Assembly: GCA_040753955.1 (NCBI GenBank)
Contig: JBFMDQ010000003.1
Coordinates: 17,312 to 81,311, forward strand
From: Nitrospirota bacterium
GTDB taxonomy: Bacteria > Nitrospirota > Thermodesulfovibrionia > Thermodesulfovibrionales > SM23-35
Length of the DNA: 64,000 bases
Reading direction: 5' to 3'
The notes under the pieces are model-generated. The model was not told the origin of the DNA. It was given only the letters and a program-made list of their open reading frames with translations, and made no database searches. Position numbers and translations under genes: made by a program. Shown here in pieces: positions 31,167-47,030 of the stretch. Position 1 is the first letter of the stretch; each line of letters begins with the position of its first letter.

Positions 31167-31260
31167 TTAAACTATATTATATCTAAATCAAGTGATTTTT
31201 TCGTCTATATCATGGCAAGTCAGTCCGCCTCTGGCGGATGCCGCTACCTGAATTCAAGTC

Positions 31261-31384
31261 AAAATTATCAATGAGTAATTATCAATTAACAATGAGCAAT
31301 TACCAAGTTAAATTTTCAATGATAATTTTGCATTGATAATTGCTAATTTTTATTTGATTATTATTTGGTCATTGGGTATTTTAG
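31261..31384. repeat. Heptamer-periodic AT-rich inverted-repeat element (AATNNNN words)
   Basis: Six in-phase heptads run AATTATC AATGAGT AATTATC AATTAAC AATGAGC AATTACC (31263-31304). They face an inverted arm ending at about 31384. The element shares an identical 17-mer and 20-mer with the hypB-hypF spacer. Confidence 0.7.
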
Positions 31385-36078: not shown

Positions 36079-37128
36079 ATGATAACTAACAGATTTTACC
36101 TTTTTGCCTTGATAGCCCTCGTATTAATTCTGGGTTTTCTAAGTTACCGAATATTAAGGCCTTTTTTATCTCCCATAGCATGGGCAATCGTCCTTTCTAC
36201 AGTTTTTTATCCCCTTTTTGCCCTCGCTACTAAATATATAAAATGGAAATCGGTAGCATCCCTTATTACCCTCGGTATCATACTTTTAATAATTCTTGGC
36301 CCCTTTTCATATCTCACATATTTACTTATTAATGAACTTAAGGCCTTAGCAGATTATCTGGAAGTTGAAAGGATTAGGGCCTTTCAAGATCTGCTACAGC
36401 ATCCGAGTATCAAGCCGATATTCGATAAGTTACTATCTCTATTTAATATTACCGAAGCAGAACTCAATAAGGCCATTGCTGATAATATATCGCGATTTGG
36501 GAAAGAAGTGGTTGACAGAATTACAGAGGGAATGGCTAATATTGTAACTTTCTCATTAAACTTTGTTTTTATGGCCTTTTCAATCTTTTTCTTTCTGAGG
36601 GATGGACCTGAATTTCTGAGTAAAGCTCGTGATTACATGCCCTTTTCAGAAGAACAGAAGGATAGACTGGTAAAACGGATAAGGGATATTGTCATATCAA
36701 CGATTTATGGTGGCGTTGCTGTCTCGATCGCCCAGGGAACCATAGCCGGAATTGTCTTTTTCATACTCGGAATCTCAACACCTGTTGTCTGGGGATTGGC
36801 CACTTCCATTGCCTCCTTCATCCCGCTTGTTGGCGCATCTGCAGTATGGGTGCCTGCCGTTATATATCTGTTTATAAAGGGTGCGGTAGTAAAAGGAATA
36901 GCCCTTGCAATTGTGGGGATATTTGGGATAAGCTTGATAGACAATATTTTAAAGCCCATCATAATAGGTGGCAGGACAAAGATGCCCATTCTTGTCATCT
37001 TTTTCAGTATTCTCGGAGGAATAAAATTATTTGGATTGATAGGTCTTATAATGGGACCACTGGTACTGGCACTGTTTGTATCGGTTATCGAGATATTCAG
37101 GAGTGTAGAAGGAGGACAAAATGCTTAG
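36079..37128 (+). CDS. AI-2E family transporter (PerM-like permease)
   Basis: It is a polytopic membrane protein with the typical AI-2E C-terminal region. The start is set at MITNRF after AAGAGG; the tracked ORF begins at 36043. Confidence 0.8.
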   Translation: MITNRFYLFALIALVLILGFLSYRILRPFLSPIAWAIVLSTVFYPLFALATKYIKWKSVASLITLGIILLIILGPFSYLTYLLINELKALADYLEVERIRAFQDLLQHPSIKPIFDKLLSLFNITEAELNKAIADNISRFGKEVVDRITEGMANIVTFSLNFVFMAFSIFFFLRDGPEFLSKARDYMPFSEEQKDRLVKRIRDIVISTIYGGVAVSIAQGTIAGIVFFILGISTPVVWGLATSIASFIPLVGASAVWVPAVIYLFIKGAVVKGIALAIVGIFGISLIDNILKPIIIGGRTKMPILVIFFSILGGIKLFGLIGLIMGPLVLALFVSVIEIFRSVEGGQNA

Positions 37129-38242
37129 CAGGGCAGAACTGAAAGAGATCGCATCTATGGAGAGAAAGGATGGTTATTTTGTTAGTCTCTATCTCAATGT
37201 TGACCCTATGTTCAATAAAAAGGGAGACTATATGGTGCATCTCAAAAATATGATGAAGAACACTGTAGAGTCGCTGGATAAGACTATATATAAAAGAGTA
37301 AAGGTTGACCTTGAAAGAATTGATAATTATGTCCTTACAAATAAAAGGATGTTTAAAAAGGGACTTACCCTTTTGAGTTCCACTGAGAATTCCTTCTGGA
37401 AGGAATACCATCTCGGAATTCCAGTAAAGAATGAATTGATTATTGATAAGACTCCTTATACAAAACCTCTTATGGATATTCTGGATAATTACCAGAGGTA
37501 TGCAGTTTTGCTCGTGGATAAAGAGTCCGCAAGGATCTTTGTGATTCACCTTCGTGAGATTGTAGAATACGGTGAGGTCCACACCCCTGACGTTCCCGGA
37601 AAACATAAAAAAGGTGGATGGTTTGCCCTTTCTCAGAATCACTATGCGCGGCATATAGATTATCATATAGGCATGCACCTCAAAGAGGTGATAGAAAAAC
37701 TGGATTCCTTCCTTGGTGGCGAATATATTGGTAGGCTGATAATAGGTGGCTCTGATGAAGCTGTTTCTATGGTCAAAGGTATGCTGCGCAAGATAATTCT
37801 TGACAAGGTTATAGGAACAGTAAAGATAGAGATGTTTGCTAAAAGTTCTGAGGTTCTGGCCAAAGTAGAACCGATAGTTTTTAATTATGAGAAAAAGAAA
37901 GAGGAGGAAACAGTAGAAAAACTTGTCACAGGAGCTATGAAGAACAAAGATGCTGTATTGGGTTTAGAAAATGTTCTAAATGCCCTGCAGGAACAGAAGG
38001 TGATGAAATTAGTCTTAATAAAGGATTTCAGGACATCTGGATACTCCTGTTCATCTTGCGGATTTTTGACTATCCAAAAAGTCGAACCCTGTCCTTACTG
38101 TAAAGGTGAGATGGAGATAGTTGATTATATAGTTGATCTTGCAGGTGAAAAGGCAATACGGCAGGGCGCTCTCGTTGAAGCCATAATAGAGAACAAGAAG
38201 TTGGCAGATGTTGGAGGGATTGGGGCATTCCTGAGGTTTTAG
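37121..38242 (+). CDS. Bacterial eRF1/Pelota-like (aeRF1 superfamily) protein with a zinc-ribbon insert
   Basis: The 373-aa ORF has KKGGW...SQ in its central domain and a C-terminal eRF1 domain-3-like end ...GGIGAFLRF. A CxxC...CxxC ribbon (CSSCG...CPYC) is inserted. Its start overlaps the AI-2E stop by 8 nt. Confidence 0.6.
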   Translation: MLSRAELKEIASMERKDGYFVSLYLNVDPMFNKKGDYMVHLKNMMKNTVESLDKTIYKRVKVDLERIDNYVLTNKRMFKKGLTLLSSTENSFWKEYHLGIPVKNELIIDKTPYTKPLMDILDNYQRYAVLLVDKESARIFVIHLREIVEYGEVHTPDVPGKHKKGGWFALSQNHYARHIDYHIGMHLKEVIEKLDSFLGGEYIGRLIIGGSDEAVSMVKGMLRKIILDKVIGTVKIEMFAKSSEVLAKVEPIVFNYEKKKEEETVEKLVTGAMKNKDAVLGLENVLNALQEQKVMKLVLIKDFRTSGYSCSSCGFLTIQKVEPCPYCKGEMEIVDYIVDLAGEKAIRQGALVEAIIENKKLADVGGIGAFLRF

Positions 38243-38958
38243 TGGGTAGCCTCTTTTATTAACTCCTTCATTTCCCTAACAGCCCTCTCCATTCCCACAA
38301 GCACCGCCTTTGAAACGATACTGTGTCCTATGTAAAGCCCCCTTATGCCCTGTATAGAGGCTATTTTTGTAACATTAAAATAGTTAAGACCGTGCCCTGC
38401 ATTGACCACAAGACCAATATCAAGCGCGTGTCTAACTGCATTCGTAACCCGAATCAATTCTTCTTCCTGCCTTTTACCTTTTACATTTGCATAAATTCCT
38501 GTGTGTATTTCAACCATATCTGCTTCTATCTGTTTCGATAGAGTAATGTCTTCAAGATCGGGATTTATAAATAGACTCACGGGTATGCCGACACCCTTAA
38601 TCTTTTTTATTGCATCCTGAATGTTTTTTTTCTGCGATTTTACATCGAGTCCACCTTCTGTTGTGAGTTCCTGCCTTTTTTCTGGTACCAAGGTAACCAG
38701 ATCAGGTTCTGTCTGGGTAGCGATCCTTATCATCTCTTTTGTTGCTGCCATCTCGAGGTTTAATTCAACAAGTATAAACTCCTTTAACATCTTCAAATCC
38801 TTATCCTGAATGTGACGCCTGTCCTCCCTTAGATGAACTGTGATTCCATCTGCACCACCGAATATAGCTAAGGTTGCAGCCATAACAGGGTCAGGCTCAA
38901 TACCCCTTCTTGCCTGTCTTATAGTAGCCACATGGTCAACATTAACACCTAATATCAT
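38239..38958 (-). CDS. pdxJ: Pyridoxine 5'-phosphate synthase
   Basis: The start is set at MILGVNVDHVATIRQARR. The motifs HLREDRRHI and GHGL are present. The 22 upstream codons of the tracked ORF are repeat DNA. Confidence 0.9.
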   Translation of the reverse strand: MILGVNVDHVATIRQARRGIEPDPVMAATLAIFGGADGITVHLREDRRHIQDKDLKMLKEFILVELNLEMAATKEMIRIATQTEPDLVTLVPEKRQELTTEGGLDVKSQKKNIQDAIKKIKGVGIPVSLFINPDLEDITLSKQIEADMVEIHTGIYANVKGKRQEEELIRVTNAVRHALDIGLVVNAGHGLNYFNVTKIASIQGIRGLYIGHSIVSKAVLVGMERAVREMKELIKEATH

Positions 38959-38965
38959 AAAAGAA

Positions 38966-39190
38966 CTCCAATGATCAATAACCAAATACCAATAACCAAA
39001 TAAATTCCAATAATCAAAAACCAATAACCAAACAACATTAACCCTTAATTAGCAACTGAACCACTTGCACGGATTAACTGTGAAATGAGTTCTCTGTGGT
39101 TCTCTCTTCAAGGTCGAATTTTTGTTTGGTTATTGGAATTTTCTTCATTGGTTATTATTTGGATCTTGGAATTTGGTGTTTGGTTATTAT
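38966..39190. repeat. Long inverted repeat of ~70-nt heptamer-periodic arms (ATAACCA/AATACCA words) filling the hypE-pdxJ spacer
   Basis: The arm at 38966-39036 faces the inverted arm at 39121-39190, with an 84-nt centre. A third copy of the arm lies at 46935-47000. Confidence 0.75.
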
Positions 39191-41254: not shown

Positions 41255-41279
41255 AACTTTTAACTTTTAATTTTTGACT

Positions 41280-43778
41280 TCATCTTCCTGCCTTTATCCT
41301 TTCCCTGATTATATATGCCTGGCCGAGGGATATCCCGGCATCATTACATGCAACCTTTTCGTTGACATAGACTTCCATTCCTATGGATTTAAGCCTTGCG
41401 ATGGTCCTTTCGAGGAGATAAATGTTCTGAAATACCCCCCCGCTCAGAACAACTTCTTTTATCATATAAAGGGAAGAGAGCTTCTGCGCAATTCTAAAAA
41501 TAGCAGTGGCTACGGTGTTATGGAAAAGAGATGCAATAACACCTTCATCCTCTCCTTTTATTGAATCCTCTATAATCCTCAGAAAAGTCTGGGAGAAATC
41601 AATCTCTATGGCCTCTCTGAATTTTATATCTACAGGATAGTCATCAACTACATCAGGTCTCGTTATGGCTTCAAGTGCAATAGCTGCCTCTCCTTCAAAG
41701 GTATTTTTGTCACATATCCCGAGTATGGCTGAGACCACATCGAAGAGTCTCCCGGCTCCTGATGAAAGGGGCGAAAATTGTTTTTTATCGATAATCCTCG
41801 ATATGTTTTCCGTCGTCTCATGACCATACTTATCAAGAAAGCCTATGGACTCAAGATAATCCATCGCCTTATCTTGAGCCATGTTCCAAATATAGCTCAC
41901 AGCTGTCCTCCACGGTTCCTTAATTGCCACTTCACCCCCTGGAAGGGGAATATATCTGAAATGACCTACCCTTTCGAACCCCTCTATATTGGCAATTAAA
42001 ATTTCTCCACCCCAGAGATTTCCATCAGTGCCATAACCGGTTCCATCAAAGGAGAAACCTATAACCCTCCTCTTTATCCCCTTTTCAGCCATCACAGAAG
42101 CAATATGGGCATAGTGGTGCTGTATACCTATCTTTTCAATATCTTCCTGCCGCAATGCCCATTGTGTTGATAGATACCCGGGATGGAGGTCATAGGCAAG
42201 GGCCACAGGCTCTACCCTGTAAACATCTTTAAGGTTTTCTAAGCTCTCCTCAAAAAACCTCAATGTCTCGTAGTTTTCCATATCACCTATATGCTGACTC
42301 GGTATCGCAAAACCTCCCTTTGTGAGGGTGAAGGTGTTCTTAATATCAGCTCCACATCCGAGAACCTCAGGGCCCTCCTCGTGAAAGGGAATGGGGTCAG
42401 GGACATATCCGCGAGAACGTCTTATAAAAAAAGTCGGGAGTCGGGAGTCGGGAGTCAAGGATCCTAATTTTTGATTTTTAATTTTTAATTCTTGACTGAT
42501 GACTCTTACTACTGAATCATCAACCCGCATAAAAATATCTCTATTATGAATAAGAAAGGCATCAGCAATGTCTGAAAGCGTAGAGAAAGCCTCATTATTG
42601 TCTATGACGATAGGCTCTTCCGAGAGGTTGCCACTCGTCATGATAAGGGCATCGAAGTTAGTCGTTAGTCGATAGTCGATAGTCGATAGTCCTGAAGCTG
42701 TAGCCGCAGGCTTCAGCCTGCGAAATTTTTCATTTAAGGGATAAAAAAATAATAGATAATGCAACGGGGTATACGGAAGCATGAAGCCGAGGCAGGGGTT
42801 ATTCGGTGCAATTGCATCGGGAAGAGAGTTTTGCCTCTTTTTAAGTAGCACAATCGGTCTTTTGTTAGAAATTAAAAGCTCCTCCTCTTCTTTAGATACG
42901 TCGCAGAATTTTTTAATCGTTCCAACATCAGGCGCCATCAGGGCAAAGGGTTTGTTACTCTTTCTCTTCCTTAATCTCAACGTCTTTACTGCCTCATCGT
43001 TAGTTGCATCGCAGCCTAAATGAAACCCTCCAAGCCCCTTAATAGCAACAACTTTTCCTTCTTTCATGAGTTTTATTGTCGCCTCTATAGGATTTCCTTT
43101 TTCATAGACTTTTAGCTCTTCACCTAATAATCCCCTCATTCCCTCTTTATCCCTCTTAGTCCCCCCTTGGTAAGGGGGGAAATAGGGGGGTGAGGGGGGA
43201 TTACTTTCATTCTTTACTATTAATTCAACATGTGGACCGCATGCTGCACATGCATTCGGCTGGGCATGGAACCTCCTGTCTTCTGGATTATGGTATTCTT
43301 CCTCGCATTTAGGGCACATCTGAAAAACAGACATGGTAGTGCTCGGTCTATCATAAGGAACAGATTTTGTTATTGTATATCTTGGACCGCAGTTCGTGCA
43401 GTTTATGAATGGATAGAGGTAACGTCTGTCATTCTTATCCAGCAGCTCCCTCAAGCAGTCTTCGCATAACGAGACATCTGGAGAAATGAGGGTGAAACTC
43501 CCTTCGTCCTTACTCCTGACTATCTGAAAATCCTGATAACCATGATAGGGCATGGGAATTATATCAATTTCCATTATCTGTGAAAGAGGCGGGGCCTCTC
43601 TGGTAAGCCTCTCGATAAAGGTGGAGCTATTGTTACCTTCTATCTCGATAGTAACACCCCTGGATGAGTTCATCACGAGGCCCTTGAGATTCAAAGTTTT
43701 GGCAAGGCTATAAACAAAGGGCCTGAAGCCAACTCCCTGGACAATTCCCCTGACTAATATCTTCACCCTGGGTTTCAT
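41280..43778 (-). CDS. hypF: Carbamoyltransferase HypF carrying three in-frame repeat-derived insertions
   Basis: The 832-aa ORF has an acylphosphatase domain, two CxxC-x18-CxxC zinc fingers, a YrdC-like domain (AIKGLGGFHL) and a Kae1-like domain. Extra segments lie at 43116-43211, 42651-42743 and 42426-42500. Confidence 0.9.
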   Translation of the reverse strand: MKPRVKILVRGIVQGVGFRPFVYSLAKTLNLKGLVMNSSRGVTIEIEGNNSSTFIERLTREAPPLSQIMEIDIIPMPYHGYQDFQIVRSKDEGSFTLISPDVSLCEDCLRELLDKNDRRYLYPFINCTNCGPRYTITKSVPYDRPSTTMSVFQMCPKCEEEYHNPEDRRFHAQPNACAACGPHVELIVKNESNPPSPPYFPPYQGGTKRDKEGMRGLLGEELKVYEKGNPIEATIKLMKEGKVVAIKGLGGFHLGCDATNDEAVKTLRLRKRKSNKPFALMAPDVGTIKKFCDVSKEEEELLISNKRPIVLLKKRQNSLPDAIAPNNPCLGFMLPYTPLHYLLFFYPLNEKFRRLKPAATASGLSTIDYRLTTNFDALIMTSGNLSEEPIVIDNNEAFSTLSDIADAFLIHNRDIFMRVDDSVVRVISQELKIKNQKLGSLTPDSRLPTFFIRRSRGYVPDPIPFHEEGPEVLGCGADIKNTFTLTKGGFAIPSQHIGDMENYETLRFFEESLENLKDVYRVEPVALAYDLHPGYLSTQWALRQEDIEKIGIQHHYAHIASVMAEKGIKRRVIGFSFDGTGYGTDGNLWGGEILIANIEGFERVGHFRYIPLPGGEVAIKEPWRTAVSYIWNMAQDKAMDYLESIGFLDKYGHETTENISRIIDKKQFSPLSSGAGRLFDVVSAILGICDKNTFEGEAAIALEAITRPDVVDDYPVDIKFREAIEIDFSQTFLRIIEDSIKGEDEGVIASLFHNTVATAIFRIAQKLSSLYMIKEVVLSGGVFQNIYLLERTIARLKSIGMEVYVNEKVACNDAGISLGQAYIIRERIKAGR

Positions 43779-43828: not shown

Positions 43829-44045
43829 GTTAAAATTATCAATTAACAATTATTAATTTTACTGTTTTTCACAATACGGTTAAGGTTACGATGCCGGTAT
43901 CGTTATTCGGTTACGTCTTTCGGCCTCGAACTCAATAGTATAGAAAAACGAATGACATTGGCCGTTGGACGGCACGGGCTTCTTAACCTTAAACCTCTTT
44001 ACCCTATAATACGGTTAATTTTACATTGATAATTGCTAATTTTCA
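43829..44045. repeat. AATTATC-type hairpin element interrupted by a 124-bp GC-richer insert flanked by an 11-bp direct repeat
   Basis: The 17-mer AATTATCAATTAACAAT (43834-43850) and 20-mer CATTGATAATTGCTAATTTT (44024-44043) are identical to 31277-31293 and 31331-31350. The direct repeat AATACGGTTAA lies at 43873-43883 and 44008-44018. Confidence 0.7.
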
Positions 44046-45389: not shown

Positions 45390-45797
45390 TTATTTTAAAA
45401 GATTATTCAATAAAACTCCAAGGGCTGTCCTTATTCCAACCCTAAGGCCTGAAGCCTTTATTAGGGCAGAGGATGTCACATCCTCTAACAGGCTACTAAC
45501 ATGCCTTATATTCTCACCCACATCTTTTACGGCGCCAGAGAATGTCTTGACATTAACCGCAACTTCTTCAATGTCGTCCGATACATTCCTGAGACTCTTC
45601 AGTGTCTGCTGTAGTTCTTCCAGTGTTGTTTTAGTAGATTCCAGTGATGTTTTAGCTGATTCCCCTGTTGTCTTCAAAAACTCCCTCAGAGATCGGGCCG
45701 TCTTCCTCAATTCTATGAGCAGCGGAATGAGAAAACCGGCCGTCACAAGAACGGCAACTACTATTAATCCTATCCATACCTGATTCATGGTAGTCAT
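45390..45797 (-). CDS. DUF948-like membrane-anchored coiled-coil protein
   Basis: The 135-aa ORF has an N-terminal TM helix and long helical repeats, an arrangement typical of the DUF948/YtxH pair. Confidence 0.6.
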   Translation of the reverse strand: MTTMNQVWIGLIVVAVLVTAGFLIPLLIELRKTARSLREFLKTTGESAKTSLESTKTTLEELQQTLKSLRNVSDDIEEVAVNVKTFSGAVKDVGENIRHVSSLLEDVTSSALIKASGLRVGIRTALGVLLNNLLK

Positions 45798-45852: not shown

Positions 45853-46944
45853 ATGGGTGACGAACTTTATATAAAGCGTGCCCTTAGGCTTGCAGCAAAG
45901 GCACGCTGTATGACAAGCCCGAACCCCATGGTTGGGGCTATAATTGTCAAGAATGGGAGAACAATTTCTGAGGATTTTCATAGAAGGCCTGGGACTCCCC
46001 ATGCTGAGGCTCTCGCTATAGAAAAGGCCGGAGAAAATGCCAGGGGTTCCACCCTTTATATAAATCTCGAGCCATGCTGCCATACAGAGAAAAGAACCCC
46101 TCCCTGCACAGAGGCTATCATTAGTGCGGGTATAAAAGAAGTGGTTATTGCTATGACAGACCCAAATCCAAAGGTCTCGGGCAGAGGAATCTCAGAGCTT
46201 CAGAAGGCTGGTATAAAAGTCAGATCAGGTATTCTCGAGAACAAAGCAGAGAGACTTAATGAGGCATATATAAAGTACATGACTACAGGAAAACCCTTTG
46301 TGATACTAAAGATTGCCATGACCCTCGATGGGAAGATTGCTACCCCTGAAGGGCAGTCTAAATGGATAACATCCGAAAAGGCAAGAAAGATGGTTCACCG
46401 TCTGAGAGGCAGCGTTGACGCAATCATAACAGCTATAGGAACAGTTAAAGCAGATGACCCTGAGCTTACGGTAAGGATAAAAGATGGTAAGAATCCCCGA
46501 AGGATCGTTATTGACCCTGACCTTGAAATATCTTTGAATGCAAAGGTTCTTAAGGTACCACCCCCGACAATTATAATAGCGAAAAAGTCAGCAGTCGAAG
46601 AAAAGAAAAAAACATTGTTCAATAAGGGTGTTCAAATCATCGAGTATAAGGGAGAAAAACTAAATCTCCACTGGCTCATGAGAAGGCTTGGGGGAAGAGA
46701 AATCACATCGGTTCTGATAGAGGCAGGCTCCTCGATGAATGCCCATGCCCTCGAAGAAGGAATTGTCGACAAGGTGATATTTTTCATTGCACCGAAGATC
46801 ATCGGAGGGAGAGAGTCATTCCCTGCTGTAGGTGGGAAGTCCTTCAGGAGGCTTGAAGAGGCATACCGTTTAAAGGATGTGAAGGTAAGAAGGGTAGGGG
46901 AAGATATCTTGATTGAAGGATATATAGATAAGAATAACCAATAA
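45853..46944 (+). CDS. ribD: Bifunctional riboflavin biosynthesis protein RibD (deaminase/reductase)
   Basis: The 363-aa ORF has the CDA motifs HAE and PCxH..(x)..PC, plus a C-terminal RibD reductase domain. The last codons and the stop lie in repeat DNA. Confidence 0.95.
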   Translation: MGDELYIKRALRLAAKARCMTSPNPMVGAIIVKNGRTISEDFHRRPGTPHAEALAIEKAGENARGSTLYINLEPCCHTEKRTPPCTEAIISAGIKEVVIAMTDPNPKVSGRGISELQKAGIKVRSGILENKAERLNEAYIKYMTTGKPFVILKIAMTLDGKIATPEGQSKWITSEKARKMVHRLRGSVDAIITAIGTVKADDPELTVRIKDGKNPRRIVIDPDLEISLNAKVLKVPPPTIIIAKKSAVEEKKKTLFNKGVQIIEYKGEKLNLHWLMRRLGGREITSVLIEAGSSMNAHALEEGIVDKVIFFIAPKIIGGRESFPAVGGKSFRRLEEAYRLKDVKVRRVGEDILIEGYIDKNNQ

Positions 46945-47030
46945 CCAAGCACCAAATTCCAAATAAATTACAATGACCAAATTCCAATAACCAAACAAAA
47001 AATCTCTGTAGCCGCAGGCTTCAATCTGCG
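46935..47030. repeat. Composite repeat: one ATAACCA-type arm followed by the 24-nt motif TGTAGCCGCAGGCTTCAATCTGCG
   Basis: The arm resembles 38966-39036. The 24-mer at 47007-47030 matches 42699-42722 inside hypF at 22 of 24 positions. Confidence 0.7.

Follow-up and report, generated by a model that had tools for sequence, protein, structure and literature searches.

Tandem repeats built from 7-nucleotide units are known from several bacterial settings, and the analysis described here concerns one more of them: a block at positions 42426-42500 of a 64,000-nucleotide stretch of DNA from a Nitrospirota bacterium ('the window', meaning that stretch at its full length), where such units lie in frame within hypF, the gene for the hydrogenase maturation carbamoyltransferase HypF. 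Among the described systems, the short tandemly repeated repetitive sequences (STRR) of filamentous cyanobacteria are hairpins of 7-bp repeats found in intergenic positions, for example in the hupS-hupL spacer and upstream of hoxW (PMC2670836). Within a coding region, the poly-psi variable number of tandem repeats (VNTR) tract of NeuO, carried by the E. coli K1 prophage CUS-3, consists of AAGACTC units of which three specify one 7-residue block; it changes by strand slippage, keeps the frame only at multiples of three units and encodes a disordered peptide (PMC3046976). In marine Beggiatoaceae, TAACTGA direct repeats are abundant; they lie directly upstream of start codons that lack Shine-Dalgarno sites, and occasionally occur within open reading frames (ORFs), in their stop-free orientation only (PMC4679880). 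Rickettsia palindromic elements (RPE; Ogata et al. 2000) are portrayed in a later review as palindromic repeats inserted into housekeeping genes without loss of the frame, at sites that the fold of the protein can accommodate (PMC10969869). Finally, the survey by Mrazek, Guo and Shah (2007), as summarised in PMC4679880, has heptanucleotide repeats as the commonest class of simple sequence repeats (SSRs) with units of 5-11 nt in most prokaryotic genomes, with polymerase slippage proposed as the mechanism.

Set against these systems, the block is an in-frame, paired-array, STRR-like repeat in Nitrospirota that is concentrated in hypF. A single block of this kind is explicable; a hotspot specific to hypF and to period 7, extending across an order, is unexpected. 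The gene and the parts of the block are as follows.

41280-43778, minus strand: hypF, encoding the carbamoyltransferase HypF (832 aa) and hosting three in-frame repeat inserts, at sites A, B and C (PDB 3VTH and 4G9I; Pfam).
42426-42500, minus strand: site C insert (residues 427-451), a degenerate palindrome of ten 7-nt units that share a single register (sequence, Tandem Repeats Finder, folding, comparison of the arms).
42433-42459, plus strand: left arm, GTCGGGA x3 + GTCAAG; on the sense strand (CCCGACT)n, encoding TPDSRLPT (Tandem Repeats Finder, 100% matches, 3.6 copies; pairs with the right arm in the plus-strand RNA fold).
42459-42464, no strand: GGATCC, the centre of the palindrome and apex of the hairpin (fold, sequence).
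42465-42497, plus strand: right arm, TAATTTT TGATTTT TAATTTT TAATT CTTGACT; on the sense strand AGTCAAG AATTAAA AATTAAA AATCAAA (comparison of the arms).

By its domain content, the ORF at 41280-43778 encodes a HypF carbamoyltransferase, with acylphosphatase, zf-HYPF, YrdC-like and Kae1-like parts: Pfam places in it an Acylphosphatase domain, two zf-HYPF domains, Sua5_yciO_yrdC at residues 237-433, HypF_C at 469-565 and HypF_C_2 at 574-820, and similarity to the solved structures 3VTH (E = 1e-208) and 4G9I is full-length. The protein is 100% identical to a HypF annotated at NCBI in a Nitrospirota metagenome-assembled genome (MAG); its nearest relative, at 84% identity, comes from a Thermodesulfovibrionales MAG. 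The surrounding minus-strand cluster has the order hypA, hypB, hypF, hypD, hypE.

The site C peptide, ISQELKIKNQKLGSLTPDSRLPTFF, occupies residues 427-451, between the segments DDSVVRV (420-426) and RRSRGYVP (453-460). In the alignments with 3VTH and 4G9I its extra residues correspond to a gap within a short turn (…DDSVTSFN–AGA–ERIIRRARGY…), and many members of the clade have at this position a basal loop of nine residues, VRVMPNNSSLSFI (VRV-MPNNSSLSF-IRR). The initial annotation of this DNA had counted about 25 extra codons; a block of 25 residues is indeed present, but the gap in the turn and the nine-residue basal loop together mean that the net gain is 16-18 residues (about 16 relative to VRVMPNNSSLSFI, about 18 relative to 3VTH and 4G9I). 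The location in a loop, also proposed at that stage, is borne out by the structural alignments and by Pfam, which put site C in a turn where the YrdC-like domain, at its C-terminal edge, meets the Kae1-like domain. In an AlphaFold2 model of HypF (60 close homologues), beta-strands at residues 422-426 and 450-455 flank the insert; because that model is poor, with a mean predicted local distance difference test (pLDDT) score of 59 and values below 50 over residues 383-505, it lends weak support to the strand-insert-strand layout and to nothing else. The insert is hydrophilic, with a mean hydropathy of -0.97 compared to -0.24 for the whole of HypF.

At the level of the DNA, the coordinates and the letters of the heptamer block proved exact as first reported. 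On the minus strand it reads AGTCAAG, AATTAAA, AATTAAA, AATCAAA, AATTAGG, ATCCTTG, ACTCCCG, ACTCCCG, ACTCCCG and ACTTTTT; on the plus strand, the three copies of GTCGGGA lie at 42433-42453, AGTCAAG at 42453-42459, the AT-rich array TAATTTT/TGATTTT/TAATTTT/TAATT at 42465-42490 and CTTGACT at 42491-42497. Tandem Repeats Finder detects both arrays at site C, and its copy numbers for the coding heptamer arrays are 3.6 and 3.7. When an array was defined by at least three head-to-tail copies, and 20 dinucleotide shuffles of the window served as the null, the arrays in the window were of period 7 only (three observed, 0.0 in the shuffles), and all three lie within hypF. Site C is a coding-region heptanucleotide SSR, with at least three head-to-tail 7-nt copies and a frequency above chance, and its description as in-frame repeat DNA whose units are read in all three phases holds.

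That two heptamer arrays are present had been recognized from the outset; what had been missed is that they are related as a palindrome, that one unit is a stop-avoiding variant, and that such arrays are enriched in hypF specifically. The GTCGGGA-type and TAATTTT-type arrays are the two arms of one degenerate palindrome rather than independent arrays. It is 65 nt long and decayed: of the 30 positions at which the left arm can be compared with the reverse complement of the right arm, 15 are identical and 15 differ by transitions, with no transversion, although the 15 transitions amount to roughly 5-7 independent changes because the units are copies of each other. Its innermost stem is formed by the perfect inverted 7-mers AGTCAAG and CTTGACT, which had been described as bracketing the whole block; they are present as described, but flank the AT-rich half alone. 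Folded as plus-strand (antisense) RNA, the site gives a hairpin of 29 bp, rich in G·U pairs, at -24 kcal/mol (z = -4.0; none of 200 shuffles was as stable), whereas the mRNA (sense) strand gives z = +0.2, and folding as DNA yields no significant hairpin on either strand. Pairing of the STRR type is found at site C as plus-strand RNA only, and not as DNA or as the mRNA strand. At the same site, relatives have a first arm of the form (AGTCAAA)n and a second of the form (YYYGACT)n, for which reason the AATTAAA and AATCAAA units of the window look like further-decayed AGTCAAA.

The reading frame has left its mark on the arrays. AATCAAA is the sole variant unit of the AT-rich array, and a perfect unit in its place would give an in-frame TAA ('...KN*KL...'); a parallel stop-avoiding variant, AGTTAAA to AGTGAAA, is found in L001 (L numbers denote related hypF loci), the closest relative. 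Of 47 consensus units of hypF arrays, 4 contain a cyclic stop when read on the sense strand, compared with 28 when read on the antisense strand. The arrays are also A+C-rich and G-poor, with a sense-strand G content of 0.18 as opposed to 0.26. Avoidance of T, as a way of excluding stops and hydrophobic residues, was considered as a cause of the asymmetry of the arms and rejected: the arrays are short of G but not of T, a pattern that agrees better with escape from mRNA self-pairing than with exclusion of hydrophobic codons. Directly after the palindrome the sense strand continues with U7, and a well-paired sense-strand version followed by U7 would resemble an intrinsic terminator, with a likely hazard of premature termination.

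Of the known systems, STRR provide an apt comparison, as had been suggested. Both consist of tandem 7-bp arrays able to pair as a hairpin, both have many unit sequences, and both are associated with hydrogenase gene clusters; however, STRR are intergenic and belong to heterocystous cyanobacteria, whereas site C lies in frame in coding sequence of a Nitrospirota genome and has eroded pairing on the mRNA strand. NeuO shares the presence of a heptanucleotide in a coding region, and its AAGACTC unit and the window's CCCGACT have a GACTC core in common, but its tract is long and perfect (2-93 copies), begins 2 nt after the start codon, and undergoes proven high-frequency switching with a dose effect on activity. 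The hypF arrays, in contrast, are short, paired, inverted, interrupted and placed mid-gene in a loop, and are known here from assembled sequences. The TAACTGA repeats resemble the heptamers of the hypF-hypD junction, which are likewise next to a start codon without a Shine-Dalgarno site; they differ in having one favoured unit genome-wide, mostly in intergenic DNA, with in-ORF cases at protein termini, whereas hypF has many different units, set in inverted arrays that pair, and these occupy internal loops encoded by a single gene. In the SSR survey, as far as its summary goes, units that are multiples of three dominate coding regions, whereas in hypF non-triplet units persist by changing in threes.

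The enrichment in hypF was measured in two sets of related loci, the second of which partly overlaps the first. The counts of period-7 arrays were as follows.

80 genome loci (hypF 189 kb, flanks 717 kb): 44 arrays in hypF, 12 in the flanks; binomial p = 4e-20.
80 metagenome loci (hypF 184 kb, flanks 341 kb): 30 arrays in hypF, 4 in the flanks; binomial p = 2e-10.

The density in the genome loci is thus 0.233 per kb in hypF versus 0.017 in the flanks, a 14-fold difference, and by a rough estimate it is also about three times that of the intergenic DNA of the flanks. For periods 4, 5 and 6 the hypF/flank counts run the opposite way (12/61, 2/12 and 2/8). These p-values are overstated, because orthologues are not independent, but that caveat is countered by the finding that the units at any given hypF site mostly differ from lineage to lineage. 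Within the protein, the arrays are grouped around some six positions (residues ~180-208, 290-370, 395-450, 505-560, 615-625 and 700-710). The hotspot fades with distance, from 29 arrays in 58 loci with closer HypF to 1 array in 22 loci whose HypF is less than 50% identical to the query, and the rare period-7 arrays outside hypF are in RibD, HypE and Nnr. In L035 (6541-8263) one hypF alone holds eight arrays of period 7, among them GGTGATA and CCTATCA arrays that are complementary and separated by about 110 nt. In-frame (AACAGTC)n arrays are found in the hypF of L034 (7716-7744) and L035 (7959-7980); their unit is that of the cyanobacterial STRR3 repeat, CAACAGT.

Site C itself was compared among 120 HypF homologues, in which it holds either the basal loop or an insert belonging to one of several families. 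Inserts of the ISQKS...ST.DSR.STFF type occupy the same site in many Thermodesulfovibrionales whose HypF is 66-84% identical, mixed patchily with basal loops, and the lengths of their peptides step by 7 aa. In a tree built without the insert columns, the insert types remain patchy in distribution, and basal forms fall within groups that bear inserts. The segment had been thought lineage-specific: it is extra relative to the solved structures and to many relatives, but it is not private to this genome, given these homologous inserts at the same site, and because their carriers belong to the same order they do not represent its occurrence in unrelated lineages. An array-spacer-array build recurs at site C in many lineages with differing units, such as TCATCAG x4 and CTTTCAA x5 in L001, CTCCGCA x4 in L002 and TGCGGAG x4 in L059, while in L074 the arms are complementary and fold at -42 to -46 kcal/mol, a value that varies with the stretch taken for folding.

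Comparison of close alleles shows the steps by which such sites differ. Between L081 and L082 (96.7% nucleotide identity) the difference at site C is exactly 21 nt, or three ACTYCYC units, and L083 and L084 differ there, again by exactly 21 nt, through three AACTCTC units. Whole-unit copy differences are thus seen between homologous arrays of relatives; the window's own array is known from one allele. At site B, L081 and L082 have altogether different sequences, a C7/G7 palindrome and a heptamer array respectively, and other HypF pairs with 95-99% identity differ by whole inserts of 20-57 aa. Even the closest relatives, with 84% identical HypF, have different peptides at site C (ISQELKIKNQKLGSLTPDSRLPTFF and ISHQSSVISQKLSTFNFQLSTFF); L001 has its flanks and some units in common with the window, and its expanded units are different. 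These comparisons point to site C as a clade-wide hotspot with turnover rather than the scene of a single colonisation event. Spread of units within a gene, from site to site, was rejected: arrays at different sites of one gene share units in 14.5% versus 8.2% of cases at no more than one mismatch, which is not significant (p = 0.36), and the cases in L082 and L059 are anecdotal.

Further repeats lie in hypF and beside it.

42654-42728, minus strand: site B insert, residues 351-375 (Tandem Repeats Finder, translation; fold z = -2.0).
42659-42691, plus strand: TAGTCGA x4.7 array of site B, adjoining a GC hairpin module at 42703-42722.
43107-43211, minus strand: site A insert, residues 190-224, a C6/G6-type palindrome encoding NPPSPPYFPPYQGG... 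(inverted repeat I5, 43140-43168/43172-43200).
41255-41279, minus strand: hypF-hypD junction, TGA AGTCAAA AATTAAA AGTTAAA AGTT-ATG, of the site C unit family (sequence).

The GC hairpin module of about 24 nt, TGTAGCCGCAGGCTTCAGCCTGCG, is present at 42703-42722 and at 47003-47026, each time 3' of a heptamer tract on the plus strand; further copies of its core, GCCGCAGGCTTCA, lie immediately downstream of ribD, at 47011-47023, and in site B of both L002 and L004. With its T-rich tail the module is terminator-like on the plus strand, and it behaves as a small dispersed hairpin repeat. The small dispersed repeats (SDR) of Nostoc, as reported by Elhai et al. in 2008, are very small hairpins in a heptamer-rich genome and may be compared with the 24-nt module of site B and 47003-47026, from which they differ in lineage and in sequence. 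The site A palindrome folds at -39 kcal/mol and its insert is absent from the PDB homologues; related 'PPxKGG' inserts are present or absent among 95-99% identical HypF proteins, at sites A, B and C. A search of Rfam at permissive E-values returned no relevant match, its sub-threshold, miRNA-like hits falling on the site A palindrome alone.

The hypF-hypD junction had been noted as a related AT-rich run, and its units are those of the site C family. Within this 25-nt spacer the heptamers run directly into the hypD ATG, with no Shine-Dalgarno motif; the orthologous junction of L001 is (AAGTTAA)n. That heptamer tracts also build intergenic hairpins in the window was likewise confirmed: an AATTATC/AATGAGC-type hairpin at 31254-31355 (-26.8 kcal/mol) recurs twice in the window, at 43834-43850 and 44016-44043, and again at 5035-5100 of L001, and one copy lies in the hypB-hypF spacer, conserved in the closest relative. 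The genome therefore holds dispersed heptamer-based repeats, yet site C looks like in situ turnover of an inherited repeat.

The explanation that best fits these observations, to which a probability of roughly 0.6 may be given, is that the block is an STRR-like heptamer hairpin repeat undergoing slippage turnover in a permissive HypF loop, filtered for frame, for stops and for mRNA structure. The two inverted tandem 7-nt arrays, in frame in what would be a beta-hairpin turn at the C-terminal edge of the YrdC-like domain, would most likely descend from a better-paired palindrome, (AGTCRRR)n-loop-(YYYGACT)n, common to a Thermodesulfovibrionales subclade at site C and perhaps perfect in its ancestral form. 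Such arrays would gain or lose units by slipped-strand events, and unit variants would spread within an array, while selection on HypF would retain alleles whose change in length is a multiple of 3 nt (typically three units, i.e. 21 nt and 7 aa), which have no stop in any of the three phases and which lack a strong mRNA fold. The 16-18 extra residues would then be a hydrophilic passenger loop, presumably neutral, with no sequence-specific role.

Several points weigh against this explanation. Slippage combined with tolerance leaves the density in hypF, 14-fold over the flanks and, as a rough figure, about 3-fold over flank intergenic DNA, unaccounted for; tolerance alone does not say why hypF is favoured. 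Arrays of three units are short for efficient slippage, and the databases hold no other copy-number allele of the window's exact array (the P0001 cluster has one member). Close alleles with an entirely different site B, as in L081 and L082, suggest that recombination or insertion operates besides slippage. That the arms differ by transitions only might stem from selection for antisense-strand structure instead of decay, and the explanation presumes that the site C segment is translated.

Insertion of a mobile palindromic element, that is, a selfish element resembling miniature inverted-repeat transposable elements (MITE), RPE or repetitive extragenic palindromes (REP), with the frame of hypF kept by chance, seems unlikely. 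The initial annotation had leaned this way in picturing repeat DNA 'colonising' the gene in the manner of RPE, and there is material to support it: the block is palindromic, basal and insert-bearing loops alternate in the 95% identical proteins P0029 and P0032 (a difference of 28 aa, in a protein-level comparison), the same insert families turn up in separate subclades, the site B GC hairpin is dispersed (47011-47023, L002 and L004), and the window's intergenic heptamer hairpins are multi-copy. Against it, neither the block nor either of its arms has a second copy in the 64-kb window or in about 1.4 Mb of related loci; what does recur is the AT-rich unit alone, in L007 and L008 at hypF site A. 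Because the block has no other copy in the DNA searched, insertion of the RPE or MITE type is unsupported. No target-site duplication is recognizable, no terminal inverted repeats distinct from the arrays are present, and 65 nt is below the typical size of a MITE or RPE. The L001 pattern of shared flanks, some shared units and different expanded units fits turnover in place, and the encoded peptide is not conserved even among 84% identical HypF proteins. Most of the features that define RPE accordingly fail to apply. As reviewed in PMC10969869, RPE measure about 150 bp, form multi-copy families, encode a conserved peptide and occupy many unrelated genes; site C is 65 nt long, single-copy within the DNA searched and without a conserved peptide, repeats of its kind are concentrated in one gene, and the likeness is restricted to in-frame palindromic insertion.

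Slightly less likely still is that hypF is a contingency locus, made phase-variable by its heptamer arrays, in which a slip of one unit would switch [NiFe]-hydrogenase maturation off and a further change would restore it, as for neuO of E. coli K1. Because 7 nt is not a multiple of 3, single-unit slips would indeed frameshift hypF, NeuO provides a precedent (PMC3046976), and the period-7 enrichment of hypF is strong and specific, with up to eight arrays per gene (L035). Moreover, the hypF of L078 (the same as L136) changes frame exactly within an array of four units, and a change of +1 or -2 units would restore it. This frame change, in Nitrospirae bacterium CG1_02_44_142, falls within ATTCAAG x4 at site A (L078 6543-6574, the same as L136 3543-3574), and may represent a slipped allele, a pseudogene or an error; a frame break in L063 was dismissed as a frameshift, being an N gap. 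Among 161 distinct sequences, however, this is the single out-of-frame hypF (assemblies being consensus alleles). The arrays are short (3-6 units) and often interrupted, that of the window by a variant unit, and they lie mid-gene at many sites and not near the 5' end: where a long uninterrupted tract near the 5' end or promoter would be looked for, the arrays of site C have three perfect units and four interrupted ones, and occupy codons 427-451 of 832. Where a gene has several arrays, its OFF states would not be easily undone, and the 21-nt differences between close alleles fit purifying selection equally well. About as improbable is the wider proposal that hypF is specifically targeted or selected for heptamer repeats, either as a multi-site contingency gene or as the host of selected antisense G·U hairpins, so that the 14-fold enrichment, specific to period 7, would reflect a function or a dedicated mechanism and not tolerance.

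Very little probability attaches to selection of the plus-strand hairpin as a functional nucleic-acid structure, whether within a cis-antisense RNA or as a structure linked to replication; such selection would account for the transitions that keep G·U pairs. It would draw on the contrast between the two RNA strands (z = -4.0 as opposed to +0.2) and on the absence of transversions over 30 compared positions, as well as on the terminator-like character of the site B hairpin on the same strand and the better antisense folding of several relatives. The 15 transitions, however, shrink to about 5-7 independent changes, and the transition-only rule is weak over 12 adjacent array pairs, with no transversion in 2 of the 12 (null 7%) and at most one in 7 of the 12 (null 32%); because support across adjacent arrays is weak, the claim of inverted arms that differ by transitions only is limited to the window, L074, L027 and L014. 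Strand preference across loci is about 18 to 17, Rfam yielded no match, the DNA folds are insignificant on both strands and the search for an antisense promoter found no convincing one. Depletion of G on the sense strand is explained equally well by selection against mRNA structure, a premature-termination hazard because of the U7 that follows the palindrome.

That the extra loop is a selected protein feature, serving as a functional linker or interaction surface, is highly improbable: inserts do lie at domain boundaries and are kept in frame in many lineages, but the peptide is not conserved between the closest relatives (ISQELKIKNQKLGSLTPDSRLPTFF versus ISHQSSVISQKLSTFNFQLSTFF), the period of 7 nt is not a codon multiple, and the loop is absent in many relatives and in all solved structures. 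An assembly artefact is a negligible prospect, since the arrays (21-35 nt) are far below read length, the ORF is intact with stops avoided and the same build appears in dozens of independent assemblies, even though the window comes from a single MAG contig and is known from assembly alone. An intein, an intron and translational bypass were dropped as candidates, the block being too small and devoid of a stop or of take-off and landing codons in a continuous ORF.

Elsewhere in the window, CCAATAA/CCAAATA heptamer tracts lie at 38968-39043 (with an inverted partner at 39122-39141, upstream of pdxJ) and at 46930-46995 (downstream of ribD). The TTG start annotated for the ORF at 38239-39024 is probably too far upstream, as its PdxJ profile match begins at residue 25, and the plus-strand ORF next to pdxJ (37121-38242) has bacterial eRF1-like release-factor domains (baeRF family 10, eRF1_2 and eRF1_3). 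On the minus strand at 45596-45671, within the ORF of a DUF948 protein (45390-45797), is a repeat with a 21-nt period (2.6-2.9 copies), a 7-aa repeat at the protein level and not a 7-nt one.

As to what the STRR-like repeat of hypF means, non-triplet tandem repeats would be expected to be purged from essential coding DNA, whereas here, across an order of bacteria, a 7-nt system persists in an enzyme of hydrogenase maturation. The sequences themselves show the filters behind this persistence: units change three at a time, variant units avoid stops, and pairing has been lost from the mRNA strand. STRR-like heptamer hairpins are thereby extended beyond the cyanobacteria and beyond intergenic DNA. 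The half-dozen or so permissive sites of HypF offer a natural series of loop insertions, of use for protein engineering, and the variation in HypF length within the clade, which spans 765-935 aa, is repeat-derived and is to be read with that warning in annotation. If the contingency version were true, hydrogenase maturation would be stochastically switchable in free-living anaerobes. The finding also raises a concrete question, namely why one gene attracts heptamer repeats.

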